A DNA stretch of 64,000 bases, taken from contig OX597817.1 of assembly GCA_951406725.2 (NCBI GenBank), forward strand, positions 95,852,001 through 95,916,000, given 5' to 3'. This document shows, piece after piece, positions 2,101-39,297 of the stretch. The notes below the pieces were generated by a model. It saw only the letters and a list, made by a program, of their open reading frames with translations. It was not told where the DNA came from and searched no databases. Every line of letters begins with the position of its first letter. The stretch's first letter is position 1. A program made the position numbers and the translations under genes. The DNA is from Octopus vulgaris (taxonomy: Eukaryota).

Positions 2101-2895
2101 TCCACTTAAACATGAATTCCTTTCATGGATTTGATTGTCTATTTGATAGAACTAATCTGTACATTTCAAGCAGTTTTAGGATAATTACTGTGTTCATCGT
2201 ACGTGGCAATGAGAAATCTGCCGGGTTTCATCATTGGTTCTAACTTTATTCATACCACTGTAGAATAAATTATCTTTTGATGCTTTCACTCTTCAGAAGC
2301 TCATGAGTTTAAAGTTACACAACCACCGGTGTTTTTTTATTGATTCATTATATCTGGAGGATTGCCAGCTAAGGTTTAAGAAGCTCTCTCTTGGTGAGAC
2401 GGTACGTCATAATCTCAGGGTAGTTATTATCTAGAAAGTAGTCTAAGGGCGGCGAGTCCGTTGTTTTGTCTGATTTGGTCACTCTGCCACTCATTTAACT
2501 GGATAACCGTGTCGAGAAATTCGTTTCCAGCGGAAGTTTTAATGGTTCCATAATTTTCCACAGAGTTACAATGTCATGTATTTCGTAGAGTAACGTATAA
2601 GTCAAGGAAGAAGATGGAAATATCAATATAGCAAAAGTTTAATATCGAACCACATTATATAGAAATGATTGTGTGTGATTGATTACACAACCCATATTGA
2701 ATAGGGAGGAGTGACACCTCATCACATACTTACCAGCCTGTTCTATTATACATGACGTTTATGAAATCTAAAACTGTATAGGCATGTTAATGAAAAGCAC
2801 TAAGTTCAAATTATTACATAATTTACCCTCGTATTATATTATTTTTATGCTTAACTTGAAATTATATAACGTATAATTACTGCCTTCTCTTACAG

Positions 2896-3489
2896 TATGT
2901 CGAAATATTATGGCTGATGTCTATTTTCTAATGGATTCTTCTTCGAGCATTCGAAAAACTGATTTCAGAAAGCAACTGCATATTTTAAGAAAAGTTATAT
3001 CCAAATTTCAGATAGGATCTAACAAAACACGTGTTGCCGTATCATTTTTTACTCACCAATTCCTTCCTGTATGGAAACTGAACGACTTACAAGATAAATC
3101 AGCGATTCTAAGACGTATTAAATCCCTAAAGTACCTGGAAGGCGCCACAAAAACTGGTTATGCTCTTTACAAAGTAAGAACACAAGGCTTTATATGGCAA
3201 AATCAGCAAAATGCTGATCAAATTTTAATTGTATTTACCGACGGTCAGTCGAGTGATTACAAACGGACGAGATACGAGGCAAAATTATTGAAGCGAAGAG
3301 GAGTTAAGATATTCGTCGTTGGAATTGGTCCCTACGTTGATAAGGAAGAGCTGAATAGCATCGCAAGTACACCGTCCATAGAATATGTGCATACTTTTGA
3401 TAGTTTTAACTCTTTATCAATGACCAGCGGAATTCTGAATGTAAAAGCATGTTCAGCAGTGAAACAGATGTTTTTTAATGACCAAAATG
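2896..3489 (+). CDS. Internal exon encoding a VWA domain (collagen VI/matrilin-like extracellular protein)
   Basis: Polypyrimidine tract plus tacAG acceptor ending 2895; CRNIMADVYFLMDSSSS (MIDAS DxSxS), TRVAVSFF, GATKTG, LIVFTDGQS, KIFVVGIG; donor G|GTAAGT at 3490; phase 1 at both ends. Confidence 0.9.
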
Positions 3490-4116
3490 GTAAGTTTTTG
3501 CTTAAATGCATTTAATGAAATTTTTGTTTTGCAATATAATGAATATAATGTATGTATCATGTATGATAGGAATGAAATTTGTACTTTTATTGTGACGGGT
3601 CATATTTATATCTTGTAATTTCTTTTGAAACTCTGCAAAACAAATTCATTGAAATTTATCAGTGAATATATATGTACTGAATGAACGAGAACTGTTTTGT
3701 GCATTCAGTATGAATTGTTTAGGAGTTAGAATTTACGGAGTATTCTAGATTGCCGAATTTTAAACCGGCGTAATTAGATTCAAATCATATCCTTGTTTCT
3801 TTTCTTAATTGGTAGAAAAAGACTGATATAACATGTTTGTTGACTGCTAGTCACTAGCTGTTAATGATTATTACCTAACTAAATGCTTAATGATACACCA
3901 CCAGGTCTGAGAATCAAACTCACGGCCATATAATCGTGAGTCCAACACCTTAACCACCTGACCCCGTACCTTCATATATATCCTCTAGGTCGGGTTAGGC
4001 CAGGTATGGGAATATGTGCAATTGCAGAGCTTTGCTGCATTCACTATTTGTCGGTATATTCCTGGGTCCTCTCAGGCGACCCGTTGAGTAGAGTCCCAGG
4101 CAATCCCTATCTCCAC

Positions 4117-5361: not shown

Positions 5362-5435
<74 letters not shown>

Positions 5436-5518
5436 GGTCCCGGGTTGATTCGGGGTTAACCACAGTAAATAAGGTACTCAATACATAGCAGAGTAAAATT
5501 AATTTATTATATAGAAGG

Positions 5519-5569
5519 AGCTTCTACAGGACTAGAACTGTTTCATTCAAGAGAAATCTTCAGGAAGCT
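5519..5569 (-). ncRNA. Type I hammerhead ribozyme candidate in the PLE terminal repeat
   Basis: Minus strand: AGCUUC-CUGAAGA-UUUCUCUUGAAU-GAAACAG-uucuaguc-CU-GUA-GAAGCU; stems I and III pair, stem II is weak. Confidence 0.65.
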
Positions 5570-5741
5570 AGTTAACAAGAATTGTATTGGCATTTATACA
5601 TTTAGGCAGGTTTAAAGGGGTGTTGGTGGGGGACTTTTTGGGGGTAGGCATAGCGCGCAAAATATCATACTTGGGGGAGTGGTCAAGGAGTCAGTGTTAA
5701 ATTAGATAGAAGAATAAATAAAAAATAAAAAATAAAAAATA

Positions 5742-5786
<45 letters not shown>

Positions 5787-6207
5787 AAAGGGGGATAGAG
5801 TTTTAGGTAAATAAGGAGATTCTCACTTATACCTATGCACATATGTATACATATATACACACGCATACAAACATATACATATACATACACACATACATAC
5901 ACACACATATATATATACATATATATACACTTACACATACATATACATATCTACACATACACATATATGTATACATACACACACTCACATGCATACACGT
6001 ATACACACATGTATATATACACACACACGACCACACATACATATACACACAGAAAAATATATATACACATACACACACATACTCACATACACGCATACAC
6101 ACACAAATCCACACACACACATGCACACCCAGCACACTAGTCCCTATATACACATATATACACATACACACATATATATATATACATACACACACATACA
6201 TATACAT

Positions 6208-6254
<47 letters not shown>

Positions 6255-6668
6255 CACATGTGTACCCATGCATATCTACACATACACACATATATATATA
6301 CACATACAAATACAGACCCATTCCCTAATTTTAATTTTATTATCTTCGTTTATTACTTTTGTTATCTTTGGCCGCTTGGTCACAAACATCTTGGCTATGA
6401 CAGCCAGTCCATTTATCTGTCTACTGGAAAACAAGCACTCATTCACTCACGCAGACTCTTTAGCACGTACACTCACTCATTCGTACACTCATACACATAC
6501 ACGCACGCACGCGTTATATTAATACATACATACATCTACATACATTCACGTATATACACATACGTACGCGTACCTACAGATTCATGTCTACACTCTTAGA
6601 AGGCTAGTCTATACATATACACCAATAAATATAAATACACACACATACACGTACACCTACATACAAAT

Positions 6669-6745
<77 letters not shown>

Positions 6746-6956
6746 CACATATATACACATATATACATACACACACATATACATACACATATATACACAT
6801 ATACACATATATACACACATAAACATACATACATATACACTCATACACATACATACGTATACATACATACATACATCCATACATCCATACATACATACAT
6901 TTATACACATACACACACCCACATACATACATATATATACGCGCATATATATATCC

Positions 6957-6997
<41 letters not shown>

Positions 6998-7398
6998 CAT
7001 ATATACATATATATTCATACACACACATACACATACATACATACATATACAAATATACGCACACACATACATACATACTCATATACTCATACACACACAT
7101 ACACATGTACATGCGTCCCCTTACACGCACACACACACGCGCGCGTCCATATATACACATAAGTACACCCATGCGTAAGAGTATACATATATCTATGCTT
7201 ACACATACACACACACACACGCGCCTCCTTATATTCATACTTACATGCATACTCAAAAAATAAGTAAATAGTAAAATATATATACGCGCAGTTATTCATA
7301 CATGCATACTCAAAAAATAAATAATAAATAAAAAATATTAAGTATATGTACGTGCAGTTACCTATTATATAGACGGATACATATAAACTTACACACAT

Positions 7399-7468
<70 letters not shown>

Positions 7469-7808
7469 ACATACATACATACACACATATATACACATAC
7501 ACACATACATACATATATATATATACACACACACACACATACACACACACACATATATATATATATATACACACACACATACTTACACATGTACATATAA
7601 ATACACACATAGATAACTCTACGTACCTACATATACATAAACACACGAGCGTACGCCTATATGTACATATACACATACACATACACACGCATATATATAC
7701 ATACATACATACACATACACACATGTGTATACACATACACACACATACACATATATATACATACACATATATATACACATGCACATACTTATATCTCTAC
7801 ATACTCGC

Positions 7809-7859
<51 letters not shown>

Positions 7860-8190
7860 TATATACATACATATACACACACACATACATATACCTATAT
7901 ACATGCATATATACACATACATATATATACACATCTACAATTTGTATCTACACTCACATACCTGCACATACACATAACTCTACATACCTACAAATACATC
8001 GACATACTCGCGTACACTCATATATATACACATATATACATATACACACACACATACATATACATATACATATACATATATATAAACATATACACACATA
8101 ATACACATATACACACACACATACATATATGTATATATATATATATATATATACATATATACACACACATATATATATATACACACATAC

Positions 8191-8221
<31 letters not shown>

Positions 8222-8622
8222 CATACATATATATATACATATACATACATACATACATACACATATACATACATGTACATATACACATACACACACATAT
8301 ATATATACATACACATACATATATCAACAATTGAGGGTAAGGTTAATTAGTTATTAATCAATTTCACCAAGTATTCAGTTGTAAAAGGACCATTATTTTT
8401 ATGAGTAAACAATGTCTGAGGGAAAATATTCTCTAAGTAGTGGAAGAGGCTAAAAAACTTTATTGGCTGCTATTTCTAGAAAGTTCAGTATGCGGCAGAG
8501 TAATTTATTTTACTAAGCCCTAATTATATAATATTTTATACACACATACACATACATACACACATACATATACACATACATATGCATACACACATATATA
8601 CATATATACATACATACATCTA

Positions 8623-8653
<31 letters not shown>

Positions 8654-8888
8654 GCACATACATATATATATATATATATACACATATATATATTTTTTTT
8701 TACATACATACACGCACACACACACATAATACATGCGTATAATCCTACTATACCCATACATTTCTATACATATATACGATACACATATACAAGCGTGCAC
8801 ATACAATATGTGAAAGGTCTTAGGAGAAAAGGTAATCGGGGGTGCTAGGGGAACGGTGGGATTGGGGGGTTTTGTGGGTGGGGTGTCA

Positions 8889-10478
8889 TCAATCTGGTTG
8901 CCGGGTAGGTCTATAGTTCTTGTAGTTCGCATACTTCTTATGCATACAATTTGGGGAGTGTTCTGAGATTTTGTTAAGGAGAGGGCCTTTGGCGAACAAG
9001 ATCTCTAGGCTCTCCGATATGCAGAGGTCACAGCAGGTATGGCCTCCTGTGTACGAGCGCGCCTTCTGTAGTAGTTTCCACTTGGTCTTGAAGGGGATGG
9101 AGTTCCTTTTAAGGTACCAGATGTGGGCGGCGAGGGTAGTTTGGTTGGATTTATCTTGTCGCCGGAACGAGTGTGTGTGTGCGTACCAACGGGTCTTAAA
9201 GCTGTTTGACGTCATTCCTATGTAGGATTTTCTTTTATCGTCAGGGCCTGATCTTACCTCGCATGTATATACTAGGTCCCTCTGTAGGCAGTTGTTGTTG
9301 AGGGGGCAGGTGGTTTTATCAGGGCAGTTGCAATTGCTATCGGACGTTGGATGGGCCTCGGAAAAAGTAGATATGTTAAGTTTTTTCACATTGTTGTTGG
9401 CTAGGTTCCTGGCTAGATTGGGCGTGGTAGAGTAGGAGAGTCTAATAGTGTTCTTATTTAGGATAGTGTAGTACTTATGTTGGGTGGGGAAGTGTTTCTG
9501 TAGGAGAGTGAAGAAGATTTTAGCTACAGGTGTAGCGACCTCACGGTTGAAGGGGGGTTGTACCAGCTAATGTGTCTTCGTCTATTTTTCCTGGGTTGGC
9601 GTGGGGCTATACTAGTATAGGTAATCTTATCTTTGAAGCCACTGCGGGCCAGGGCCTCGTTGTAATAGGGGGCTGCGGCCTTAAAGATATCTTCCGTGGC
9701 GGACAGGCTAGAAATTCTAATTGAGACACTTTTTACTAGGTTATCTAATATATTTTTGGGGTGGTTGGAATTAATATCTATATATTTAAGGGATTCATTC
9801 GGTTTGTGGTACGGGTAATAAAGTGAGGTTTTTAAGTCGAGGGTGACATCAAGGAAGTTAGCTTTAGTTAAGTTGGATTCTAAGGTAATCCTAAGGCCTA
9901 AGTTTTTAAAGAAGGTGTAAAGATTTTTCCGGAACCCATCCGTGGTCCTGGGGTTTATTTTGTGGAGGGCGAAAAGGCCGTCATCGCGGTAAAGACCACC
10001 GGAGAGGCCTGTGAATAGGGTTTTCAGCCTATGGAGGATGAAAAGGCCCACTAGGTCACTTATTTCAGCAGAGTCGTTAGCACCCATGCTGACGTCGAAG
10101 GGGGTCACAGATTTTTTGTTGATCCAGTGGGATCCGTCATAGAAAAGAAAAGTCTTACGTGCGTGGAGTATCACATCTTGCTCGACCTCGGTGATGGTGG
10201 AAGACCTCCTGGCGAAGTTAATCGAGTCGATCAGCAAGCTCTCCGATATGGAGGCGTAGTAATCCTCGATATCCAGTTGTAGGAATCGGGTGTTGCTTTT
10301 ATCAGGTAAATCCTGGAACCAGGTTATTGCCTCGGAGGTCCTATTCCAGAGTGGGAGGGTGAAGCTTCACGCATTTTTGGTAAAATCCTGTCCAGGATCT
10401 TCTTGCTGACGGATCCGATGTCAGACTTGGTTGGGTTAATCAAACGGACCGACGGTTTATTTTCGAAATGGTCTTTGT
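8889..10478 (-). pseudogene. Penelope-type reverse transcriptase + GIY-YIG endonuclease, two frameshifts
   Basis: [93 protein letters not shown]; frameshifts near 10360 and 9545. Confidence 0.92.
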
Positions 10479-10558
10479 GTATATATATATATGTATGTAT
10501 GTGTGTATGTGTATATATGTGTGTATGTATGTATGTATATATATGTATATGTATATAT

Positions 10559-10624
<66 letters not shown>

Positions 10625-11348
10625 ATGTGTGTAAGTTTATATGTATGTATCCGTCTATATAATAGGTAACTGCACGTACATATACTTAATATTTTTTATT
10701 TATTATTTATTTTTTGAGTATGCATGTATGAATAACTGCGCGTATATATATTTTACTATTTACTTATTTTTTGAGTATGCATGTAAGTATGAATATAAGG
10801 AGGCGCGTGTGTGTGTGTGTATGTGTAAGCATAGATATATGTATAATCTTACGCATGGGTGTACTTATGTGTATATATGGACGCGCGCGTGTGTGTGTGC
10901 GTGTAAGGGGACGCATGTACATGTGTATGTGTGTGTATGAGTATATGAGTATGTATGTATGTGTATATGTGTGTGTATGAATATATATGTATATATGTAT
11001 ATGTATATAATTAATCAATATAGGGTGGCAAAAAAAAAAAAAAAATTTTGTAGAATTCTTTTGCCACCAGCGGCCTAGTGGGAAAAAATTAAATAGTCAT
11101 AGACCATTTTTAAGTTCAACATCAACAATCAAGGAACGGCCATAATAGGCCATTTTAGGCCATTTTTTTTGCCACCCTATATTGATTAATTATGAATTTT
11201 CTGGTTAATTCCGTAATGGAATCGACGGCTTATATTTATTTGCTGCCGATAAATTTGGCGCGAGTGCGACGATTTGAAAATTTTAGGTCAGATATAAACT
11301 TGGCAAGGTCGGAAATGCCTCGTGAAAATATCTGTTCCGACTTGGGCT

Positions 11349-11455
11349 ATTTCTTACTGAAGAATCTGAGGGCCTGTGGAAGATTGGCTTGATTTAATTT
11401 AATCAGGTTAGTTTACCATTAATCAGCAGATGAAACGGTATATCGTATAAGAAAT
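11349..11455 (+). ncRNA. Type I hammerhead ribozyme, variant A
   Basis: AUUUCUUA-CUGAAGA-AUCUG...CAGAU-GAAAC-GG-UAUA-UC-GUA|UAAGAAAU; predicted cleavage after 11447. Confidence 0.88.
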
Positions 11456-11845
11456 TACAGGGTAAATGTTTTTTAAATTTTCTCCTGGTTTACGGAATTA
11501 ATTTTTATTTGCGGTTGAAGCTTTGGCTGTTATTTCTAGTGGGTGAATGGCCTATTATGGCCGTTCCTTGATTGTTGATGTTGAACTTAAAAATGGTTTA
11601 TGACTATTTAATTTTTTCCCACTAGGCCGCTGGTGGCAAAAGAATTCTACAAAATTTTTTTTTTTTTGCCACCCTATATTGATTAATTATGAATTTTCTG
11701 GTTAATTCCGTAATGGAATCGACGGCTTATATTTATTTGCTGCCGATAAATTTGGGGTGAGTGCGACGATTTGAAAATTTTAGGTCAGATATAAACTTGG
11801 CAAGGTCGGAAATGCCTCGTGAAAATATCTGTTCCGACTTGGGCT

Positions 11846-11952
11846 ATTTCTTACTGAAGAATCTGAGGGCCTGTGGAAGATTGGCTTGATTTAATTTAAT
11901 CAGGTTAGTTTACCATTAATCAGCAGATGAAACGGTATATCGTATAAGAAAT
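11846..11952 (+). ncRNA. Type I hammerhead ribozyme, variant A (copy 2)
   Basis: Same sequence as 11349-11455. Confidence 0.88.
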
Positions 11953-12077
11953 TACAGGGTAAATGTTTTTTAAATTTTCTCCTGGTTTACGGAATTAATT
12001 TTTATTTGCGGTTGAAGCTTTGGCTGTTATTTCTAGTGGGTGAATGGCCTATTATGGCCGTTCCTTGATTGTTGATG

Positions 12078-12116
<39 letters not shown>

Positions 12117-12236
12117 ACAATCAAGGAACGGCCATAATAGGCCATTCACCCACTAGAAATAACAGCCAAAAGCTTTAACCGCAAAATAATGTCAATTCCG
12201 TAAACCAGGAGAAAATTGAAAAACATTTACCCTGTA

Positions 12237-12343
12237 ATTTCTTAGACGATGCACCGTTTCATCTTCAGTTTAATGGAAAACTAACCTGATTAAATTAAAT
12301 CAAGCCAATCTACCATAGGCCCTTAGATTCATCAGTAAGAAAT
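12237..12343 (-). ncRNA. Type I hammerhead ribozyme, variant B
   Basis: Minus strand: AUUUCUUA-CUGAUGA-AUCU...AGAU-GAAAC-GG-UGCA-UC-GUC|UAAGAAAU. Confidence 0.9.
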
Positions 12344-12729
12344 AGCCAAAACCGGAACAGATATTTTTCACGAGGCATTCTCATTGCTACCTCGTCAATA
12401 TCTGACCTAAAATTTTCAAATCGTCGCACTCGCGCCAAATTTATCGGCAGCAAATAAATATAAGCCGCCGATTCCATTACGGAATTAACCAGAAAATTCA
12501 TAATTAATCAATATAGGGTGGCAAAAAAAATTTTGTAGAATTCTTTTGCCACCAGCGGCCTAGTGGGAAAAAATTAAATAGTCATAAACCACTTTTAAGT
12601 TCAACATCAACAATCAAGGAACGGCCATAATAGGCCATTCACCCACTAGAAATAACAGCCAAAAGCTTTAACCGCAAAATAATGTCAATTCCGTAAACCA
12701 GGAGAAAATTGAAAAACATTTACCCTGTA

Positions 12730-12836
12730 ATTTCTTAGACGATGCACCGTTTCATCTTCAGTTTAATGGAAAACTAACCTGATTAAATTAAATCAAGCCA
12801 ATCTACCATAGGCCCTTAGATTCATCAGTAAGAAAT
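12730..12836 (-). ncRNA. Type I hammerhead ribozyme, variant B (copy 2)
   Basis: Same motif 493 bp from the previous copy. Confidence 0.9.
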
Positions 12837-13223
12837 AGCCAAAACCGGAACAGAAATTTTTCACGAGGCATTCTCATTGCTACCTCGTCAATATCTGACC
12901 TAAAATTTTCAAATCGTCGCACTCGCGCCAAATTTATCGGCAGCAAATAAATATAAGCCGCCGATTCCATTACGGAATTAACCAGAAAATTCATAATTAA
13001 TCAATATAGGGTGGCAAAAAAAAATTTTGTAGAATTCTTTTGCCACCAGCGGCCTAGTGGGAAAAAATTAAATAGTCATAAACCATTTTTAAGTTCAACA
13101 TCAACAATCAAGGAACGGCCATAATAGGCCATTCACCCACTAGAAATAACAGCCAAAAGCTTTAACCGCAAAATAATGTCAATTCCGTAAACCAGGAGAA
13201 AATTGAAAAACATTTACCCTGTA

Positions 13224-13330
13224 ATTTCTTAGACGATGCACCGTTTCATCTTCAGTTTAATGGAAAACTAACCTGATTAAATTAAATCAAGCCAATCTAC
13301 CATAGGCCCTTAGATTCATCAGTAAGAAAT
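13224..13330 (-). ncRNA. Type I hammerhead ribozyme, variant B (copy 3)
   Basis: Same motif 494 bp from the previous copy. Confidence 0.9.
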
Positions 13331-13588
13331 AGCCAAAACCGGAACAGATATTTTTCACGAGGCATTCTCATTGCTACCTCGTCAATATCTGACCTAAAAT
13401 TTTCAAATTTTCACCCTATATTGATTAATTATGAATTTTCTGGTTAATTCCGTAATGGAATCGGCGGCTTATATTTATTTGCTGCCGATAAATTTGGCGC
13501 GAGTGCGACGATTTGAAAATTTTAGGTCAGATATTGACGAGGTAGCAATGAGAATGCCTCGTGAAAAATATCTGTTCCGGTTTTGGCT

Positions 13589-13695
13589 ATTTCTTACTGA
13601 TGAATCTAAGGGCCTATGGTAGATTGGCTTGATTTAATTTAATCAGGTTAGTTTTCCATTAAACTGAAGATGAAACGGTGCATCGTCTAAGAAAT
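13589..13695 (+). ncRNA. Type I hammerhead ribozyme, variant B (inverted copy)
   Basis: CTGATGA at 13597, GAAAC at 13672, GTC at 13685-13687, stem I atttctta/taagaaat. Confidence 0.9.
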
Positions 13696-14167
13696 TACAG
13701 GGTAAATGTTTTTCAATTTTCTCCTGGTTTACGGAATTGACATTATTTTGTGGTTAAAGCTTTTGGCTGTTATTTCTAGTGGGTGAATGGCCTATTATTG
13801 CCGTTCCTTGATTGTTGATGTTGAACTTAAAAATGGTTTATGACTATTTAATTTTTTCCCACTAGGCCGCTGGTGGCAAAAGAATTCTACAAAATTTTTT
13901 TTGCCACCCTATATTGATTAATTATATATATATATATATATATGGATATATATATGCGCGTATATATATGTATGTATGTGGGTGTGTGTATGTGTATAAA
14001 TGTATGTATGTATGGATGTATGGATGTATGTATGTATGTATACGTATGTATGTGTATGTGTGTATATGTATGTATGTGTATGTGTGTATATATGTGTATA
14101 TGTGTGTATATGTGTATATATGTGTATGTATATGTGTGTGTATGTATATATGTGTATATATGTGTGA

Positions 14168-14227
<60 letters not shown>

Positions 14228-14641
14228 ATTTGTATGTAGGTGTACGTGTATGTGTGTGTATTTATATTTATTGGTGTATATGTATAGACTAGCCTTCTAA
14301 GAGTGTAGACATGAATCTGTAGGTACGCGTACGTATGTGTATATACGTGAATGTATGTAGATGTATGTATGTATGAATATAACGCGTGCGTGCGTGTTTG
14401 TGTATGAGTGTACGAATGAGTGAGTGTACGTGCTAAAGAGTGTGCGTGAGTGAATGAGTGCTTGTTTTCCAGTAGACAGATAAATGGACTGGCTGTCATA
14501 GCCAAGATGTTTGTGACCAAGCGGCCAAAGATAACAAAAGTAATAAACGAAGATAATAAAATTAAAATTAGGGAATGGGTCTGTATTTGTATGTGTATAT
14601 ATATATGTGTGTATGTGTAGATATGCATGGGTACACATGTG

Positions 14642-14698
<57 letters not shown>

Positions 14699-15116
14699 AT
14701 GTATATGTATGTGTGTGTATGTATATATATATATGTGTGTATGTGTATATATGTGTATATAGGGACTAGTGTGCTGGGTGTGCATGTGTGTGTGTGGATT
14801 TGTGTGTGTATGCGTGTATGTGAGTATGTGTGTGTATGTGTATATATATTTTTCTGTGTGTATATGTATGTGTGGTCGTGTGTGTGTATATATACATGTG
14901 TGTATACGTGTATGCATGTGAGTGTGTGTATGTATACATATATGTGTATGTGTAGATATGTATATGTATGTGTAAGTGTATATATATGTATATATATATG
15001 TGTGTGTATGTATGTGTGTATGTATATGTATATGTTTGTATGCGTGTGTATATATGTATACATATGTGCATAGGTATAAGTGAGAATCTCCTTATTTACC
15101 TAAAACTCTATCCCCC

Positions 15117-15154
<38 letters not shown>

Positions 15155-15338
15155 TATTTTTTATTTTTTATTTTTTATTTTTTATTTTTTATTTATTCTT
15201 CTATCTAATTTAACACTGACTCCTTGACCACTCCCCCAAGTATGATATTTTGCGCTATGCCTACCCCCAAAAAGTCCCCCACCAACACCCCTTTAAACCT
15301 GCCTAAATGTATAAATGCCAATACAATTCTTGTTAACT

Positions 15339-15389
15339 AGCTTCCTGAAGATTTCTCTTGAATGAAACAGTTCTAGTCCTGTAGAAGCT
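15339..15389 (+). ncRNA. Type I hammerhead candidate in the inverted pLTR (mirror of 5519-5569)
   Basis: agcttc-CTGAAGA-tttctcttgaat-GAAACag...ct-GTA-gaagct. Confidence 0.65.
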
Positions 15390-15398
15390 CCTTCTATA

Positions 15399-15430
<32 letters not shown>

Positions 15431-16559: not shown

Positions 16560-18340
16560 TTTCCTTTTTGGTAAAACATTGCACACGGCTGTCTGTATTA
16601 AGTTTCAAGTCAAGCTTATGAAGAGATAAACCTGGATAATTTACTACTTGTAATTGGTCAACAACAGTGTCAATAGATCTATATGAAGGTACATTAACAG
16701 ATCAAAGTTTATTGCATTCACTGTTATATTTTTCGGGGCTAGAATTGCTCTTTCACTCAACCATTTGCGATCCTTATGTTGTGCACTGAGATTTGGAAAA
16801 ACTTTGTTTATAAGTTTTTTTTCTGATTTTACCATTGGATTTATTGCACCGTCATTGTCTACAAGTACTCTTCCTTCTCTCAGTCTTGAGCAAACTGCTC
16901 AGATAATCTATCACCTTGGAGATATGCTCGCATATTTGTTTCAAGCTTCAGTACTTTCACGCAGTACCAGATGCGTGAAGATTTAAAGCATGCACGAATT
17001 TCCTCAGATTTCGTTCCCTTTGGAATAATTGGAAGGGTTCGTCCAAAATCACCAGGTAGAACAACTGTCACACCTCACATTGGAGCATCACTATTTCGAA
17101 TATCTCGCAATAACCTATCAACAGCTTCAACGGCTCTCCTCCTGGGGTATCTAGAAAGAATATTCCACCTTTCCGTGCCTAATGTTGTCAACAACTGCTT
17201 CGTATGCCTCTCTTTGATTTGGCAGTAGCTTTCATAATTTGCAAAATTATCAATGTTGTGATTTGTTTCTCTGGGCACTTCAGATGTTAGTCTGTTTTCA
17301 TTGCCATGAGTAACTTTAGGAAGCCCGTAATTCTGGAGCACTTCTCCAATAGCCAGGAATTTGCCTTCTATGTTAATCAATACACTATTGTACTCAAAGC
17401 AATGTCAGGTAATCTCTGTGCACTTGATGCATATCATTTTCAGACAGTTCATCTTTATACTTTACCCATAAGCTGTTTGAATAACCAATTTCATAGTTTC
17501 TTTTTAATATAATAGCAAACAAGGAGCTAAGACTACTTGCAATATGAGATACGAAACCCTCAGAAAGTTCCATGTCCCATTGAGAGTCATCTTCCAGTAA
17601 TCCAAGCTGAGGGTCAGCTTCACGATAGGTTTGACAGGTAGTATCATTAACAGTCCTTAAAGCATCGAAGGTTGTTGAACTCTTTCTTGTATGAAACAGC
17701 ATCCTTAAGTAGACACATTCATGTTGATTAGGGTGAACTGTATAAACTCTTCCAAGAGCACCGTCAAATCTGATATCGGGATGATTTTCAACAAGAGCTC
17801 CTCTTTTTCGCCTCTTTCATTGCTTATCATCCAATGTGTAGCAAAATGGTAGCTAGTATCAATAAATTGTCCTTGCAAATAGATCATCACGGCAAAGTTT
17901 GAAATAAGCTGTTTGAGTAGTTTCTTTAGGAACCAATGATTGTCGAGCGGCAACTGTTGACTCGGTGGATAATGTTCATGTATTGGAAATCCAAATATTC
18001 TCCAAAATGCTTCATTGCTGATGATGTATCTGCCTTGTTGATATATACTCACTTCATCTTACAGATCTGTCTTTGTAGATTTTGAGCTGCTCTATTTCTC
18101 TCCATTTGTTGTCTTGATGATTTTCGTACAGCTGATTCCTGTTGACGAATAGTTGCTGTTATTATCCTATCATCAGCATGTCTTTTTGCTCTTAGTTTTT
18201 TCTGATTCATTTTTGTCCTTTTTCTTTCTTTTTAGAGTATTTCTTGTTGCTACTTTTCACTTTCATTCTCACTTTGTAGCTGCATTGTCCTAGCTTCATG
18301 AGACTTTCTTCCAAATGAAGGCCTTTTCTTCGGTGGCATT
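16560..18340 (-). mobile_element. Decayed, internally deleted Helitron (Rep/Pif1 helicase relic)
   Basis: Fragments GRYIISNEAFWRIFGFPIHE, LRTVN..CQTYREA..LGLLEDDSQW, EAVDRLLRDIR, VLPGDFGRTLPIIPKG, WLSERAILAPKN. Confidence 0.85.
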
Positions 18341-21064: not shown

Positions 21065-21821
21065 CCATAGAGTTTTGTTTTGATTTTACACCGAAGAAAA
21101 AAGTGTTTTGTTGAGAATCCATTTACTTAACAACGAAGAAATAAAGAGACAGGTAACAATTTGTCAGTGAATTACACAATATAAATGGGTACAATTTCCG
21201 AGGCTTCCACCACACTCAGCCTGTTTTTCGGACCACAAAAAGGGTTTTGTAGCATATTAGGAGGCCAGAGTAGTTGATTCCATGCAAAAAAAAAAACGAT
21301 TTTGTTTTCTTAGTGAAAATCGTGCGAGTGTTAATCTATAAACTTACCAACATTTTCCCCATTCATTTCTGTTTATGAACATGTATACGAGCAAAACAAC
21401 ATATATGCAATTGATGTACGTACGTGTATGTGTGTTGCCCATATATATTTATATTATATATATATATTATATTTCTGTAACCTGGGCATGTATATATATA
21501 TACATATATATATATCTATATATATATATATATACGACGGGCTTCTTTCAGTTTCCGTCTACTAAATGCACTCACAAGACTTTGGTCGGCCCGAGGCTAT
21601 AGTAGAAGACACCTGTAAAAGGTGCCACGCAGTGAGACTGAACCCGGAAAAATGTGGTTGGGAAGCAAGCTTCTTACCACACAGCCACTGTAAGCGTCTA
21701 GTGTGAGGCGCTCATTTCAACTAGGTTTCCGAAACTGTCACCCATCTAAGTACTCACTAGGCTCGACGTTGCTTAACTTCGATGATAAGACAAGATCCGG
21801 TGCATTCAATGTGAAATGGCC

Positions 21822-21859
<38 letters not shown>

Positions 21860-23199: not shown

Positions 23200-24079
23200 G
23201 GAGGAAGAATTCCGTAATAAATATGAAGAGAAACTTAGAACTACAATAACTACAACCTATATAGCCCCATAAATATAGAGTTAGGCTATAATAATGGATA
23301 TCTATTACTAGTTTTTCAGAGATAACCAAATATGAAGTTACTAAAATAAAGATTATTCGCAGTAACTAACACGTAGATGTCCCTATATACGTATATTATG
23401 GAAGGAAGATCTCAGTAAATAAAATAGGATAAGCAAAAACAAGAGTTGAGTATCTACCCACCATAAGATGTAGTCAATATTATTTTTTTTAGATAAAGGA
23501 CTATAAATAGTATATATACAAACCTAGACTTAACTTTGACATCTCATTAAACCTTAAATCCGGATTATACTATCCCTACAGGAAACTAAATGAAATCACT
23601 AAATATGTTAGCAAATTCTCCAATCACCCCACCTCCTCCGTTAGCAATTCTTTAGCTAAAAGTATTCCATGTAGAATTACGCAACTCTCGATGAATGAAG
23701 ATATTTTCAATTCATACTCTCATTTTTACAATTCAGCTCTTTCTAACGCAAGATATAAACCGTAAGTTGTATATGAAATCTCTGCTGCCACTGGCTCATA
23801 TATTAGCAATGACATGTGTAGTGGGGTGCAGATGGTGATAGTAATGTAGTGGCACGTGGCCGTCTAAGTAAGAGAAATCTAGATGACGTTATCACTCCGA
23901 CTTCTATAAATTCTGGCAGAAATATAGGCCTAAATAAATCACCCATAATTAACAATGAATCACTTAGAAAAAGCATGGTTATTGATGATATTAACCATTC
24001 AAATGGGGATACTGGTATAAAAAAATTCGGTAAAAATAAAGGCAGTAAAAGTAAAAATCTAAATAAAAATGATAAAAAT

Positions 24080-24118: not shown

Positions 24119-27100
24119 AATAATACATTACTTACATTATTTATATTTGACGGATATTCGTCCTCATCTTGTTTGTTGTTAACACATTTTCGGCTGACAT
24201 ACGAGGGGCGTTCAATAAGTAATGCCCCTGACCCACTTCCCATAGAAGTAGAGCAACGAAACTTGGCACAGTTATTAGTCTTTTTCTACATAGAAACCAA
24301 CCAGAGTTACGCATTTCTACCATCGTTTGATGCAGCTCTGGAGACCGTTTTTGTAGAAGACCCCAGCTTGGTCCTCCAACCACGACGTGACGTCAGAAAT
24401 CAAGGCTGCATCATCTGGGAAACGCTTTCCTTTCAAAAACAACTTCATGGCTGGGAAGAGGTGAAAATCCGAGGGTGCAAGGTCAAGAGAGTAGGGGCAT
24501 GGGGGAGGAGTTCATAGCCGCACGCCTGTGCTTCTGATCTGGCGACCATCGAGTTGTGGACCGGAGCGTTGTCCTGCAGGAGGAGGATGCCTTTGCTGAT
24601 CTTGCCCTGCCTCTTGATTTTGATAGCTTCTCTTAATTTCCTCAAAAGTGAAGCATAATAGGCTCCTGTAATTGTGGTACCCTTTGCCAGGAAATCTGTC
24701 ATCACTACTCCGTCCTGGTCCCAGAAGACTATGAGCATGACCTTGCTAGTGGGGGGCTGCACCCTTGCCTTCTTTGGAGGAGGTAAGTCACGGTGCTTCC
24801 ACTGCATTGACTGGACTTTTGTCTCTGGATCATAGTGATGGACCCAGGTTTCATCCTGTGTAATCAGTCTTTTGAAAAATGTTGACTCATCTTCTTGGCA
24901 CATCTCCAAATTCATCCTCGAGCACTCGACGCATTCTTGCTTCCGGAAAGGTGTGAGCAGCCTGGGAATCCATCTGGCAGACACCTTTTGCATATGCAAA
25001 TGGTCATGAATGATTGGTTTCCACAGACCTGGTACTAATCTTGACCTCGTGGGCTATTTGCCGAATAGTTATGTGTCGATCTTCCAAAATGGCAGCCTCA
25101 ACTTGATGGACAGATGCCTCATCAATAGCACTAGGGGGCGACCAGATCTGGGAACTGTTTCCACAGAGTTCCGACCATGTTTGAATTCACAATGCCAGCG
25201 TTTTACAAGGGCATATGATGGGGCATCCTCACCATAAGTTACTTTTATTTCATCAAAAGTCTCCCGTGGTGTGCATCCTTTCAAATATAAAAAGCGGATC
25301 ACTGCCCGACACTCAACAGGCTCCATTTCACACTTGACTCAGTTCAAACACCTGTAAATCAGAAACCACAATTAGTTCAGAGCTGTAATTTACTACTTAA
25401 TCTATAGAGATATATATAATTGCACATGCAACATTTCAGCTAGATCAAACAATTGCAAGTGGGTCAGAGGCATTACTTATTGAACGCCCCTCGTACCCTC
25501 CAGCCTTCATCAGGTGTCTTGAGGAAATTTTGAACCTGGGTTCTTATTCCTAAGGTATTTTTTGATGTTGCTAATATTATTAAAGTCACTGCCTGGAATA
25601 GAACTCGGAATCTTCGGGTTAGTAGCCCGCGCTCTTAACCACTACGCCATATGCTCGTGGGCATATTTAGGGAATTTACTTGAATAGTATGCATTTATAT
25701 CAAATTGAAGGAACGAGAACGTCTATTCTGTAATGATGTAAACCAGGATAGGACTTCCTTAGTGTTAGACCATAAATTAACGTCAATTTTTGGAGTAAAT
25801 TTAGGTATGATCTTATCTAGGATAGACTTACTAAGCCGGCCGATATCCGATCTAGTGGGGCATATGAGTCCAACGGCAACAACACAAATGAAAATCGAAA
25901 TAAAAACAAAAGTTCTTCATACAAACCCCAAACTAATTATAAGAATAAGAAGCGTAGCGTACACAAAGGTAAAAACGGGAATAAACGTGGCGTAACATGG
26001 TATAACCCACCCCCTTCAATTACATAATAATATTAATATATGTAGAAAATTATTTAGTATACTAAAGCGCAATTTCCCTCCTTCACACAAATATTACCGT
26101 TTATTCTCCCGCAGAAATGTTAAGGTATCCTACTCAACTCTCCCAAATCTAGGTACAATTATAGCTGGCCTGAATAAAAAGCACATATCCGTGGCCGGAT
26201 ATTAAGAATAATACTCCTAACAGCACCGCTCTTAATAAAAATTGCAGTAAGAATAACCATGATAATAATGTTAATATTCGTCGTATTACAACAATCTCAA
26301 TCGACACTAATACTGTACACACCAATACGAACAGCGAGCAAGCCCTACCAATTAGTAGATATTATATTGGCATCAGTCAGCCTGCCATACAAGGGATAGT
26401 AGCAGTAATAACTCTGCCACAACAACTCATGGTAGTAGGAGTACTGATTCTACCAGATTAATCTAACACCATACCACTCCCTACAATCCTAAAACTCTCT
26501 CCGCTAGCTGTAAGGACCACCCATCTACTTCCATTCATGTTGTCAATATGCTCAACGCACAGAACATTAACACTTGTGCTGAAAAATTTTCCGTTATATC
26601 GCCCACCCTTGTCTCTCTAGTGTCACTATCTGGAAGCGAAATCTCTTATTACAATGCTCAGTACCAACATTCTGCGACCCTGGGCACGGTAACTAATTAT
26701 AATGGTATTGATATTAGTAATATAAACCCCGGTAACAACCATGCGAACACCAGTAACTCCCGCGAGCTTGAACTATTACACCATAATAACGTAGGATCGC
26801 GTACCCGTAATAACAAGTTTCATGTCTTAGAAAATATTGGGTGCAATCGTTTAGACACAATGTCAAGTGTGGTGTACAAGTGTAATGTTGTGACGGAAAC
26901 CGATACTTATATTTATATCGGTTGCTCCATAAATCTCAAGGAGCGCTTACGTAAACATTATTCTTCATTTAAATTAAGACATGGGGCAGGCAGGAATTCT
27001 CTAGTCACGAAGATTTTGGAGCTTAAGGATGACAATGTTAAATTTGATTTGAGTTGGGACATCATTAGGGTCGCTAAAGTGCACTCGAACAACAGATACG

Positions 27101-27200
27101 GGTGCAGGCTTTGCTGCATGGAGCTGTTTGAAATTCTAATAAATAACCAATGAGACCGTCGTCTTTCCTGTATACATAAGGCTACCCGCACCTTTAAATA
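23200..27200 (+). mobile_element. Old fragmented Penelope-like element (RT relic ~23200-23760, GIY-YIG ~26850-27180) interrupted by other repeats
   Basis: PYRKLNE..KYVSKFSNHP near 23575; HKYYRLFSRRNVKVSYSTLPNL near 26085; VVYKCNV..YIYIGCSINLKERLRKH..CRLCCMELFEIL. Confidence 0.75.
24202..25493 (-). mobile_element. Mariner DNA transposon, 1292 bp, frameshifted transposase
   Basis: TIRs cgaggggcgttcaataagtaatgcc..; TA TSD at 24200-24201 and 25494-25495; HTH region RAVIRFL..VKRW..FK.GR, WIPRLL, ITQDETWVHHYDPE, LLQDNAPVH. Confidence 0.95.
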
Positions 27201-28161: not shown

Positions 28162-31100
28162 CTAGCAGAATTGCCCGGCGTTGCTCGGGGCTGAATTGCT
28201 TGAAAGTACTGTTAATGATTGCACTGAATTATGATGATTATTCAGGCAAATATTGATATAAGTTTACGGCGAATGAATGTATTTGTAAGTGTATAGAAAG
28301 CCGTGTAAAGGTGTTCCTACCCCCTCGTAGAATGGTGTAAGAATTGAATGCGAGGTTGCCTTGAAAAGAGCCATGTTATTGTTCTCATAATTGTAAGAAT
28401 TTGATAGTCGTGGAAGGTGATGTAAAACGTTCGCAGGTGAATAGGGTCTCTTCGTTTTGCACGAACGGCAGCGGATGTGCTGTTACAAAACTTGATGCTG
28501 TGTTAAAAGAGAGTGGATTTCATATGTAGGCAAGAGAGGAATGAAGCATGGGTAAGTAAATATGTGTAATTTATAAAATATAGAACAATAGCATCTACTC
28601 ACCATATGTCAGACCGGCAAGACTGTAGTGGTGCTGATTAGGTGAATCACAATACAATGGTGGAGATGTTTTCATTGGTGGGCGTTTTGATTAAATTTGT
28701 TGTTGTATAAAATGATCTGTTGATTAGTTTCGAAAGTGTATGTTGCGATCGTGTTGTCGCTCATGTAAACTTTAACAGTGAGAGTGTAGATGTAGGGGGT
28801 AGATGTGTCATGTACGTTGGATATAGAAGATGAGGCTGGTGGTTTGATGATGAATGGATAGAAATAGAGTTGAGCGAAGGACAGGTGTTGGTTAAGTGTG
28901 AGTTAATGTTATGAAACGCCTAGAAATGTAAATGCCGTCATAAAAGAGAGTCGTATGTAAGTGAAATACTAACGTGTTTGAAAATGATGAAACGTAGTAA
29001 TCCTATAAAACCTCCTTGTACACAATGTTTTTTGTTTTTCGTTGTGGAAGGAATGCGAAAGCATCACTGTTGCTGCCGACACGCGAGCAGCTAACATAAA
29101 GCTGACCATGAGAGAAACATGGCTCTCCCAAATGTATTCCTGCCACAGACAGTGTTTGATCCTGCGCTTTGTTAATTGACATTGCGAAACATGACCTTAC
29201 TGGGAACTGGGACCTCTGAAATATGAAAGGTAGGTCTGCTCCTGATGGGAAAAGATGCATCCTAGGTATGAGCACAACGTTGCCTCAACCGCATCCTGTG
29301 ATAATGGTGGCCTCAATCAGATTGGGAGATAAGGACTTAACGATCAAACGTGTGCCATTACATTGTTTTGGGGAACCAAATTTCTAATGAGCATTATAGG
29401 GGCACCAACTTTAAGTTTGAGAATGTGTGGTGGTAGTCCGGGGGGGCTCAAAGGAATTGAGTACCTCTATTGGATAATTGATGACGTCGTCTGGGTCAGG
29501 AGTTGTATCGATAGACTTATATACATAGACATCCCCAGGAATGAGTTTTAGCATTTCATCATTAATATGGTGAACAGTTTTATTCCTCGGGGCCAGAATA
29601 GCCCTTTGGCCAATCCAATCCATATTCTGATAATTAGCTTGTAGATCTGGGAATACTGCATCTCTGAGATCAGAAGGCGTGTTAACAATGGTACAAATGG
29701 AATTGATGGCAATATTACCATTTTCATCCCCTGGTATTTTGCCTTCGCCAAGTGCAAGGAGGGTGTGAGAAAATGCTGCTGATATGATATCACGTCGCAT
29801 ATGAGCACGCATATTGGTGTGAAGTTTGAGAGTCTTCACCAGTGGCCACAATGTGGATGACTTAAGACACGCACTTACAGCATCAGCTCTAGTCCCTTTG
29901 GGAATAACGGGAAGTGTTTGTCGGAAGTCCCCTGAAAGAAGAAGTGTTATGCCTCCCATGAGAGCTGAAGAGTGTTTGATGTCTCTGAGAGATCTATCTA
30001 GTGCCTCAAGAGCACCTCTGTGGGCCATCGTGCATTCATCCCAAACGATAAGCTTGCATCGTCTGAAGACTTCTGCCTGATCGGAGCTGTTACTGATGTT
30101 GCAAGTTGGTGTCTCAGTCTTCGCTAAGTCAAGTGGGAGTTTGAAAGTAGAGTGAGCTGTCCTGCCACCTGGCAACAAAGTAGCCGCAATTCCAGATGAT
30201 GCCACAGCTAGGGCAATGCCTTGTGTTCGCCTAATCTCAGCCAATATTAATTTGTTGACAAAAGTTTTCCCAGTGCCCCCAGGAGCGTCCAGGAAAAAAA
30301 TGTCCCCAGCTTTGGCCCGGACTGAATTAACAACGGAGTTGTAAGCGAACTTCTGTTCTGGAATGAGCTTTGGCTCATTGTCGGCTATGTACTCGGCAAG
30401 CTCGTCAACATTAAAACATGTCTCACGCAGCAAATGTGAAGACAGAGTGTTTGTGCCTTCCCGGTTTGTTGAAGGTAGGCCATAGACCGGCAAGGCACTA
30501 CCGCCCATATCGAGTACAGTATCTTCGATTTCAAGCAGCGCCCTGTTGTAAATGAGGTCAGTGTACCCCACCTCCATTGATGGATGTAGCGATTGAGCGT
30601 GACGTAGGAAATCTTCAGACATATCATCTTTGTAGGTAAACCATAAAGAGGCGGGATTAGCCAAGTCACACCATAGTAATAGAATAGCGAAAAGCGATCT
30701 GATTTTTTTAGGAGATTTTAATGAAACACCTTCTGCCATAGTGGCGCCCCATTGTGAATCATCCTCCAAAAGTCGACGCCGAAAACAGGCTTCACGGAAA
30801 GTATCACATAATACACCATCAACAGTTCTGATGTCTTGAAAACTTTGTGGGCCTAAAACCTCATGGAGGAGAAGGCGCAGGTGAAAACAGTCATGTTGGT
30901 TTGGAGGTACAGTGTAGACTCTTCCTAGACAACTGTTAAACTTGACACCAGGATGTCCTTCAACATCCTGACCCGACTTCCTACGCACCCAATTGTTGTT
31001 TGACCACACGTAGTAGGACGGGACCTGAGGGTATAAAAGTGTTTTAGCAAATGTGCCAAGTTGGCAAAGCCTAAAGAAACCGGTCAAAGTTGTTTGTTTT

Positions 31101-32560
31101 GGATTTGCCGCCAAATCAGCTGCAGTCTGTTCAGTAAAGTAAGTTCGTTGGCCATTTTCCAAATGAACCGCTAGTTGTATGATGGCGGGGTGCCTTTGGT
31201 GAAGTGGAAACCCGAATATCCGCCAAAAAGCTTCACCACTGCTTATGTACCGACCTGCCATGTACTGTGACACCTCGTCCATGCTATTGTCCTTTTGAAG
31301 GCCAAACATGGCAGCGTCAGAACCCTTGTTAACATATTTACATATATACTTTATAGACTTGACTGAATGACAGAACTCCACATTTATGTGAGCGTTAAAA
31401 GTTTTCATCAGAAATGGACAGTACGGCACTACCCACCTATTATCCACTTGATGACCCCGTAACGTTATAGTGAATCCACCATTGTCAGGTTGCCTTCTTC
31501 TGTACAGTGGGTATCCGTCGCGGCCGGTCTGGGTCTCGTCCACGAACCTCTTTGGGTACCGTTTAGTGCACACGTGGTCTTTGTGGCATGAGGAGAACTT
31601 TTGAAAACCAGGAGCGCACGGACCGTGTACCATGTGTGCCTTCACAATGTCGTACAGCTGCCGGTTAACAGTTGGGTCCGGAATTTCTGCTGCAATGAGA
31701 TCATCAAGAACTGTTGGGTCTATTTTGTTGACCAACCAAAGCAAAATGTGCGCGTGTGGCAACCCTCTTTTCTGCCACTCAACAGTATACATGTGGCAGT
31801 TAACAGGCCGAAAAACCTGTTTTTTTTTATTAAAAGAATGAGCTTAGCCAGTTTCTGCCTGAAAACCCTTGCAATAATATCATGGCGATGATAGTACTGC
31901 TGCCCTGGGAAAAGTTCTCGCGTTACCTCAACCCACTTTGGGTTACATGTAAAGGTAATGAATAAATCGGGTCGCCCATAATGCCGAACGTAAGTAATAG
32001 CGTCTTGTGTTCGCTCGTGCATGTACCGTGGGCCCCCTATATAGGTTGAGGGGAGAATGCACATTTTGCCGATATTGCGGGCGTCAGTGTCATTCTTGGT
32101 GAATGAAATGTGGAAAAATGTAAACCGTGGAAGGAAAAGAAATAAATATTAGCAGCTGAAAGAAATTTTTTATGCAAGTATAGCGACAGAGTGTGTAAAA
32201 TGTATAGAAATTTGAATTAAAAGCCAGAAAAGAAAGTTAGATTTGCAAGAAAGGAAGTAGTTTACGTACATGTTCGAAATGTGAAGTGCTGTTTAATCAA
32301 ATATTTGCGTAAAGTGTATAGAAACGTAACTTGAAAAAGATAATGAATTGAAATTTTTAAGAAAGGAATTTGTTTACATACATGTGTGAAATGGCAAATG
32401 TTTGTGCAGTTGTCCGAAATGGAACCAGGGTAAATGTGTGGAACTGATGTATTATAATGAATAGTCCTTCTTGAACTGAAAACCAGTGGTGTAGCATATA
32501 AGAGCATAAGAGATCTTCTTCTAGCCAAAATGGATGACTAGTCTGAATGGCTCACCCCTG

Positions 32561-37600: not shown

Positions 37601-39297
37601 GCGGTTACAATAGAATGTATTGACATTAGCGAAAAATATGTCCTACTAGCCATAGATGAAGTGGACACAAACTCAGCTGCTGGTCCAGACGGTTTCCCAG
37701 CCATCCTCCTCAAAGCGTGTAAGCATGCCCTGGCAAAACCCCTCAAGATTCTCTTCCAGAGCTTTCTTGCGAATGGCAAACTGCCAAGCAAGCTGAAGGA
37801 GGGAATAATATGCCCAATACATAAAGGGGGAAGTAGAGCAGATGCCAAAAACTATAGGCCTATCTCTCTGACTTCACACATCAGCAAAGTCATGGAACGG
37901 ATAGTCAGAAAGAAACTAATCGCATTCCTTGAGGAAAATAACTTGCTGAGTGATACCCAGCATGGTTTTCGACTAGGTAGGAGCTGCCTGACCCAGCTCT
38001 TACAGCATTATGACTGGGTGTTGAGGCAGTTACTCAACAAATCAAATGTGGACGTAATCTACCTTGATTTTGCAAAAGCTTTTGACAAGGTGAATCATGG
38101 TATGATATGCCACAAACTGCATGACCTTGGCATAGCTGGAAAACTTGGAGTGTGGTTGCATGACTTCCTGAAAGATAGGAGTCAGGCAGTAGTGGTTAAT
38201 GGAGCCACCTCTATGAACACACAAATAGTGAGCGGTGTTCCACAGGGCACTGTCTTGGGACCACTACTTTTTATAGTGGCCCTCTCAGATATGCCCTCAA
38301 ATGCCCGGATAGCCACTCTGGCCAGCTATGCAGACGATACGAAAGTCTCGCAGAAAATACAGAACCCCAGCGATGTTGCACACCTGCAGCAGGAGTTGGA
38401 CTCAATTTACAGATGGGCTGAGGATAATAATATGCAATTTAATGCTGAAAAATTCCAGGTCCTGCGCTACTAGCATCCAAAACTGAATATTAAACTTACA
38501 GGATACACCGGTCCACAGGGAATTTCAATCCCAGAGCCTAAGTCTGTGAGGGACCTGGGTATCGACATGAGTGATGATACCTCTTTCCAAGTGCACGTTA
38601 CCAGGATGGCGACAAAGTGCAGACAACTGGCTGGGTGGATCCTAAGAACATTCAGAACCAGAGATAAGGAAACCATGATGGTCCTCTGGCGGACATTCGT
38701 CCTCAGCCGCCTGGATTACTGCTCACAGCTATGGTCACTCACCAGTGTAAAATTAACAGCGGACCTTGAAGCAATCCAGAGAAGATTCACAAAGAAGATC
38801 GTCTCTTTGCAACAGCTCAGCTACTGGGAAAGGTTGAAACAGCTAAGACTCTACTCCCTGGAGAGAAGACGGGAGAGGTATGCAGTAATATATGTCTTGA
38901 AGATCCTGGAAGGAATTGTGCCAAATTTTGGCATTGTAAGCTACACCAATGCTAGAACGGGACGACACTGCATAATGCCAAAGATCCCAGCAATGCCATC
39001 ACGCTTCAGGACCAGCTACTGCACAAGCCTGGGTTTCAAGGGCCCACAGCTTTTTAATATTCTCCCAAAGAGTCTGAGGAACATGCACAAAGTAGATGTA
39101 GCGGTTTTTAAATCAAAGCTGGACATCTTCCTGTCAAGAGTCCCAGATGAACCTACCTCACGGCAAGAGGTGCAAATGAGAGTAGCTATATCAAACTCCA
39201 TTCTTCACCAAGTGCCACATATTAGACGAGGTTCGTCGTAATAACAGTGTAGCACAAAACGGCGGTGCATCAGTATGGCCGCAGCTCTGAGCTGAAA

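Follow-up and report, generated by a model that had tools for sequence, protein, structure and literature searches.

How did an array of repeated units, some on one strand and some on the other, come to lie inside a Penelope-like element (PLE) of an octopus? In the window, the 64-kb stretch of Octopus vulgaris DNA analysed here, positions 11008-13925 form an array of a 494-nt unit that interrupts the inverted arm (10476-15408) of such an element.

Two insertions in one (TA)n tract

The array consists of two insertions, A and B, lying tail to tail within one (TA)n tract and each made of two divergent arms. The arms end at two sites of the unit, termed X and Y:

5433-10476, minus strand: host PLE, direct arm, with a 5'-truncated RT/GIY-YIG frame, a long microsatellite-rich 3' region, a hammerhead and the long end at 5433
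10476-15408, plus strand: host PLE, inverted arm, a copy of 7529-5500 with the short end, split by A and B
10995-11007, plus strand: candidate target-site duplication of A, left copy (right copy at 12075-12087)
11008-11154, minus strand: insertion A, short arm, unit positions 99-239, outer end at site Y
11155-11162, no strand: inner junction of A, a short local repeat of taggccattt separating the arms
11163-12078, plus strand: insertion A, long arm, 1.85 units, ending at site X (ttgttg/atgt, the final 4 bases common to the target)
12079-12112, no strand: (TA)n tract separating A and B, target DNA sequence
12113-13408, minus strand: insertion B, long arm, 2.62 units, outer end at site X (12113)
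about 13412-13925, plus strand: insertion B, second arm, ~1.05 units, ending at site Y (ttgattaat/tat)

A preliminary description of the locus had arrived at the same two tail-to-tail insertions meeting at (TA)n, and its coordinates hold within a few bases. What it called an inverted piece of ~145 bp plus ~1.85 units is A as listed (11008-11154 on the minus strand, 11163-12078 on the plus strand), and its one inverted unit plus ~2.6 units is B, with ~1.05 units on the plus strand and 2.62 on the minus strand. It also saw matching termini beside (TA)n. Indeed, the inner-facing ends of A and B are both ccttgattgttgat and the outer ends both tattgattaatta, each passing into (TA)n. A is bordered by the identical 13-mer ATGTATATGTATA at 10995-11007 and 12075-12087, a candidate target duplication whose length is blurred by microsatellite slippage. 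The host PLE shows the empty (TA)n site in its partner arm, around 6960-7025.

The units of A and B are identical in 459 of 504 aligned columns (91%), and a genome search placed them in separate subfamilies, each with near-identical relatives elsewhere; A and B are thus two independent events. Contigs of sequencing runs were uninformative either way at the inner junction of B, no listed piece spanning it. Two further places in the window, 42639 (a Y-like word) and 48892 (an X-like word), were rejected as copies of the unit.

The unit carries a predicted hammerhead

The unit of A and B has a period of ~494 nt (493 in one estimate), a G+C content of 36% and a longest ATG frame of 66 aa. Hammerhead motifs were located by pattern and constrained folding:

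11350-11454, plus strand: type I hammerhead motif with a long stem II, A unit 1, predicted cut after 11447
11847-11951, plus strand: hammerhead motif, A unit 2, predicted cut after 11944
12238-12342, minus strand: hammerhead motif, B, predicted cut after 12245
12731-12835, minus strand: hammerhead motif, B, predicted cut after 12738
13225-13329, minus strand: hammerhead motif, B, predicted cut after 13232
13590-13694, plus strand: hammerhead motif, B second arm, predicted cut after 13687

All these predicted cuts lie away from the ends of the insertions, in agreement with the earlier claim that the ends differ from the hammerhead cleavage site. The core is almost invariant across ~330 aligned units, and the hammerhead fold was obtained when the core was held unpaired; in the unconstrained fold, part of the core is blocked. 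Rfam gave no hammerhead match in the 64-kb window at the gathering score. The stem III palindrome is retained by a double change (204 GC, 114 AU, 19 mismatched, 8 other; n = 345), a compensatory pattern that fits ribozymes that may act as dimers. Ribozymes of axolotl repeats are described as acting in this way (PMC7229834, accessible text).

The element occurs at 78 other loci on many contigs, two genome searches giving 1,201 and 1,114 candidate places. The unit is also present in contigs of runs guessed to be RNA, although contigs cannot show ends or circles. We classify the A/B element as a non-LTR retrozyme: tandem non-coding units, each with one predicted type I hammerhead, dispersed in the genome. 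The accessible parts of two accounts of non-LTR animal retrozymes (PMC7229834; 10.64898/2026.07.22.740005) likewise describe dispersed, G+C-poor tandem units that code for no protein and each contain one hammerhead of type I, and propose a circRNA template and mobilisation by PLEs. At 494 nt, the unit is longer than the 150-450 bp stated in 2020 (PMC7229834) and within the 51-972 bp stated in 2026 (10.64898/2026.07.22.740005). Unlike these accounts, as far as their accessible text extends, we map insertion ends, the two-armed structure and the (TA)n targets.

Two-armed insertions nearly always pair one X end with one Y end

We searched the assembly (2.8 Gb, 227 contigs, rich in (TA)n) and analysed 10 kb around each of 78 other loci, 39 of the B type and 39 of the A type. 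These were drawn from the best 40 of 1,201 and the best 40 of 1,114 candidates with a near-full unit required, a sample in which young and multi-unit copies are over-represented. Numbering starts at the predicted cut; X covers 124-136 (~132) and Y 230-246 (~237), intervals that make up 6% of the unit and were drawn after earlier end data.

At the 78 loci, 140 of 144 outer ends fell at X or Y where 6% would do so by chance (67 at X, 73 at Y, 4 elsewhere), and TA repeats adjoin 139 of the 144. Termini and flanks of the other copies are not random, and both the defined priming sites and the (TA)n targeting that the preliminary description had read from a single locus are borne out, the former as two fixed termini. 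Two divergent arms are present at 66 of the 78 loci and a single strand at the remaining 12. The two-armed loci comprise 63 with X+Y, one with Y+Y, none with X+X and two with X and another end, so that one of each is found at 63 of 64 classifiable loci (binomial p = 3.5e-18). Candidate target duplications of 13-16 nt were found in A, L032, L116 and L141, and none was discernible at the other loci.

The inverted arm is the normal route of insertion, not an accident, and both outer ends behave as 3' ends. The X arm is longer at 23 of 63 loci, neither arm being reliably the longer one (p = 0.08), and arm lengths are uncorrelated (rho = -0.10). The predicted cut site is crossed by 57 of 63 X arms and by 60 of 63 Y arms; both arms exceed one unit at 34 of 63 loci, and arms reach 10 units. 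While the outer ends are fixed, the inner junctions are scattered along the unit and differ from locus to locus. Inner ends are enriched neither at the predicted ribozyme cut (8/126 against 5.4 expected) nor at the start of the other arm (11/63 and 9/63 against 7.8 expected). An overlap of at least 2 nt is seen at 34 of 61 inner junctions, a count without chance control, and extra bases at 18 of 61. Fold-back copying is ruled out at 10 of 59 simple loci, where no nesting of the short arm within the long one is possible. Contigs of separate runs contain other minus-to-plus joints (8 of the 10 listed), and in run X9 TA loose ends occur at X and at Y, in one contig each.

In LINE-1 twin priming, both target strands prime and a head-to-head inversion joined by short homology results. 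The A/B insertions differ in that they start without poly(A), their second site is fixed, their arms overlap instead of abutting, and the two-armed form is the majority outcome (66/78). The preliminary description had invoked a PLE-style 5' inversion. Its PLE-type geometry stands, but a secondary 5' inversion as in LINE-1 does not, because either arm may be longer, both outer ends are RNA-sense 3' ends and each site is used once.

Some single arms have an inner end joined to unrelated sequence (L042:7043-7090, L053, L125, L136:5499, L139:3611). At L042, ~40 foreign bases lie between an arm and the (TA)n tract.

The two arms of a locus share one haplotype

Comparison of the two arms of a locus at polymorphic sites gave no discordant pair among 127 for B and 4 among 219 for A, 4 of 346 in total. 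Shuffled arm pairs were discordant at 29.5% (B) and 27.9% (A), and none of 2000 shuffles was as low. L148 is the sole locus with arms of different haplotype. Both arms of a locus are thus likely to come from one template, haplotypes being equally compatible with one molecule and with two transcripts of one donor.

Counted by locus and site, alleles are uniform over the units of a locus in 147 of 149 and 219 of 235 cases (366 of 384 combined), and loci differ from one another (5 and 11 haplotypes). In L049, for instance, each of the 7 units in the two arms has three variants that are absent from the other 32 B loci compared. Other within-array variants mostly affect a single unit (113 B, 69 A) and are less often common to several (18, 12). 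Because alleles are uniform across units, other variants are mostly confined to single units and arms cross the ribozyme site, the pattern favours multi-unit arms born from one unit, as rolling copying of a circle would produce them; a single event may nonetheless have copied an uncleaved homogeneous multimer. From the rolling reverse transcription of a circle put forward earlier, the repeated copying of one unit is retained as the best explanation; the circle is something that we only infer.

Mixed units occur in L117, L051, L055 and L061. In L148 and L117, one arm or one unit bears an allele block of another subfamily, possibly a template switch or conversion. Successive units alternate with period 2 in L031 (101010), L146 (101/01) and L051, which fits a two-unit circle or a duplicated block. 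Three variants first taken as private to L031 were dropped as evidence, since at least two of them match the B unit of the window.

Two further retrozyme families have paired ends

Family C, 72% to B, with a unit of ~485 nt, is older and uses the same sites X and Y (L204-L233; L136:2304-2794; L178:5034-5395). Here a selected Y arm is paired with an X arm at 15 of 17 two-strand loci, with no Y+Y, and 13 of 30 loci have one arm only. Its sampled unit has the core CCGAUGA where A and B have CUGANGA. Family D is a hammerhead tandem with a 560-nt unit, little similarity to B and arms of up to 12 units (L056:1-1000; L264-L283). It has two fixed ends of its own, ~100 nt apart, and one of each at 12 of 13 two-strand loci, with no same-same pair; 7 of 20 loci have one arm only, and 3 further listed loci were left out.

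A relic of family D lies in the host PLE itself:

8323-8532, no strand: fossil two-armed insertion of family D in the PLE 3' region, two divergent arms aligned to D

One arm (8402-8532) is 80% to D and ends at D site 1, and the other (8394-8321) is 89% to D and ends at D site 2. We take 8323-8532 for a fossil retrozyme insertion because it aligns to D as two divergent arms at the two sites of D. The preliminary description had noted a similar junction at 8323 and linked it to priming of the adjacent PLE. The caattgttgat/TA sequence is present; the priming site of the PLE is elsewhere, its ends being at 5433 and 5502. We rejected 8323 as a PLE end, as PLE copies of 90-100% run on into identical simple-repeat sequence. 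The likeness of 8323 to the A/B ends is real, but it does not show a priming site common to the host PLE and A/B.

The host PLE obeys the same rule

The host element is, as read from its sequence, a canonical EN+ PLE. Its parts within the direct arm are:

8889-10476, minus strand: PLE reading frame, RT then GIY-YIG, two frames here, split near 9550, unbroken over this stretch in L176
5520-5570, minus strand: PLE hammerhead motif, predicted cut after 5530

In the L176 frame we recognised by eye motifs that we take to be those of RT and GIY-YIG. Pfam and PDB searches of the PLE frame returned no relevant match, and among its atlas neighbours RVT_1 and GIY-YIG are found in under half of members. 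A four-cysteine linker separates RT and endonuclease; a Cys-rich linker is a Neptune/Nematis trait, an assignment that also requires tree placement. Copies with a pLTR-ORF-pLTR structure were found, with the hammerhead in the pseudo-LTR and both tandem and inverted copies.

The element ends at 5502 (short, 28 nt) and at 5433 (long, 97 nt) downstream of its own predicted hammerhead cut. Among 39 loci chosen by the long end, 28 are long+short pairs and none is same-same; 20 loci chosen by ORF gave 7 long+short, one other+short and no same-same pair. In total, the 59 loci comprise 35 long+short pairs, one other+short, no same-same and 23 without visible pair.

A non-autonomous origin of A/B from the neighbouring PLE was rejected, the unit having no significant match to its terminal repeat. 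Compared with full-length copies of the host PLE, the A/B unit had no match at E 1e-5, the best (E 0.07) lying inside the fossil D module. Five other PLE-like frames were found among 134 sequences examined. Fragments of PLE-like frames other than the host (GIY-YIG or RT) lie in the window at 26467-27153 (plus strand), 43678-44124 (plus strand) and 23535-23774, and represent candidate mobilising families.

EN+ PLE insertions are known to have an inverted arm, a tail often at one end only and a microsatellite bias (Craig et al. 2021, PMC8557442, accessible parts). Like them, the A/B insertions have an adjacent inverted 5'-truncated arm (66/78), two 3' ends downstream of the ribozyme and a microsatellite target. 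The tail is 69-107 nt here and 30-40 nt in the canonical cases, as given in the accessible parts of PMC8557442 and PMC11167929. Further differences from canonical EN+ PLE insertions are the non-coding cargo, the multi-unit state of both arms, the use of each site once per insertion and the single haplotype.

A proposed model of paired priming

We propose that A, B and most sampled copies were made by a Penelope-type enzyme priming both cut (TA)n strands on one RNA, a reading to which we assign a probability of about 0.72. Of its parts, paired two-site priming is highly likely, and a circle would probably have been the template in at least some events. According to the accessible parts of an in vitro study (Frangieh et al. 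2024, PMC11167929), the purified PLE protein cuts and extends both strands, is a predicted dimer, and initiates at two sites inside the RNA, which set the tail, ribozyme cleavage being dispensable. In that assay the anole PLE used uncleaved linear RNA, its starts were not homologous to the target, and the two strands did not differ in start site (PMC11167929).

The insertion could proceed as follows. Tandem transcripts would be cut by hammerheads, probably as dimers, and then circularise. A PLE RT/endonuclease complex would bind the X-Y region and place staggered nicks in both (TA)n strands. One 3' end would prime at X and the other at Y, assisted by pairing of 2-4 bases (AUGU at X, UAU at Y). 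Both enzymes would then copy toward the RNA 5' side, repeatedly passing the ribozyme site to give multi-unit arms. Finally, the two cDNA ends would join at a variable point, often via short homology, and fill-in would complete the insertion. With cDNA joining and fill-in, a separate second-strand priming would be unneeded.

Retrozymes, the PLE inverted arm and the one-sided tail have already been published; the pairing rule is our addition. Retrozymes and a PLE alike follow this strict counted rule (two fixed sites, one of each, one haplotype, multi-unit arms), which suggests that paired priming is the standard route. As a signature the rule can be counted, within one genome, in four sets of ribozyme repeats and a PLE. 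The link that it draws between retrozymes and PLE enzymes is one of mechanism, not co-occurrence, and rolling reverse transcription gains genomic support from it. For retrozymes, circles have been described, and tandem cDNA and mobilisation by PLEs hypothesised (Cervera and de la Pena 2020, PMC7229834, accessible text), and a preprint relied on co-occurrence and pLTR phylogeny, its accessible parts leaving the mechanism of mobilisation open (Li et al. 2026, 10.64898/2026.07.22.740005). The rule bears on questions that the cited papers leave open, namely how PLE insertion is completed, how the inverted arm and one-sided tail arise and whether PLEs mobilise animal retrozymes. The accessible text of the 2024 study (PMC11167929) reports no pairing within single products, and the rule offers a sharp prediction for that existing in vitro PLE system. 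Neither the pairing rule nor a map of retrozyme ends turned up in our literature search, whose scope left out most subscription papers (older Penelope papers included) and supplements.

A broader version, to which we would give even odds, is that PLEs and ribozyme-circle parasites share an obligate asymmetric double priming: a dimeric enzyme would place the two cut target strands on one circular RNA, each at a different fixed site, its protomers would both roll round the circle, and the cDNAs would be joined. If true, a single step would account for the inverted arm and the one-sided tail, for how the second strand is made and for how retrozyme tandem arrays are born.

Alternative explanations

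Paired priming might have used, instead of a circle, the uncleaved linear read-through transcript of a donor array, which would make ribozyme and circles irrelevant to most insertions. We find this unlikely, even though the accessible parts of the in vitro study report unprocessed RNA as the main substrate and normal insertion of ribozyme mutants (PMC11167929), and those of the preprint report 8 of 9 Xenopus retrozyme dimers uncleaved in vitro (10.64898/2026.07.22.740005). The mixed units of L051 and L117 could likewise derive from a mixed donor. However, new alleles fixed across all units in 366 of 384 cases, with loci differing, require amplification of one unit at some point. Arms run to 10-12 units, and purely linear copying would shorten arrays but never lengthen them. 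The alternating L031 and L146 fit two-unit circles, two anecdotal cases.

A second possibility is that X and Y are not RT starts, but DNA cut sites at which an endonuclease resolves a cDNA intermediate. Sequence alone cannot separate a cut from a start, and Craig et al. 2021 attribute the one-sided tail to endonuclease-mediated resolution (PMC8557442, accessible parts). The later in vitro study, as far as accessible, mapped the tail to two RT start sites (PMC11167929), and the bases immediately beyond X and Y match the TA target, as priming predicts. Resolution by cutting is improbable.

Post-insertion growth by unequal crossover, with arms homogenised by gene conversion, leaves the fixed ends and their pairing unexplained. 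It also fits poorly with within-array variants that mostly affect single units (113 B, 69 A, against 18 and 12 common to several). Crossover has been put forward for retrozyme tandems (10.64898/2026.07.22.740005, accessible parts) and L051 contains a repeated two-unit block, yet we regard this account as very improbable. Least credible of all are twin priming as in LINE-1 with a second site taken at random, fold-back of the cDNA and an assembly artefact: the first two also yield head-to-head arms with short junction overlaps and palindromes are a known assembly hazard, but the second site does not vary, abutment of inner ends on the start of the other arm is not enriched (11/63 and 9/63 against 7.8), the short arm cannot be a copy of the long one at 10 of 59 loci, and contigs from separate runs include other minus-to-plus joints (8 of the 10 listed) as well as TA loose ends at X and at Y (X9, one contig each).

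Other features of the window

The remainder of the window contains further mobile sequences. Frames at 29411-32148 and 17394-17816 (both minus strand) are presumably Helitron-like helicases, and we take 24445-25053 (minus strand) to be a mariner-like transposase fragment. Two elements, 36147-39241 and 58930-62017 (both plus strand), are in our view LINE-like, with endonuclease and RT. What we assume to be von Willebrand A-like frames lie at 2877-3515 and 40247-40870 (both plus strand); they are probably exons of a plus-strand host gene around the insertions. A degenerate 5S rRNA match is found at 21713-21827 (minus strand).

The 3.4-kb 3' region of the host PLE (5433-8889) consists largely of TA/TG-rich simple repeats, which are carried to every new site. 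This region is a likely source of the genome's microsatellites and of new targets.
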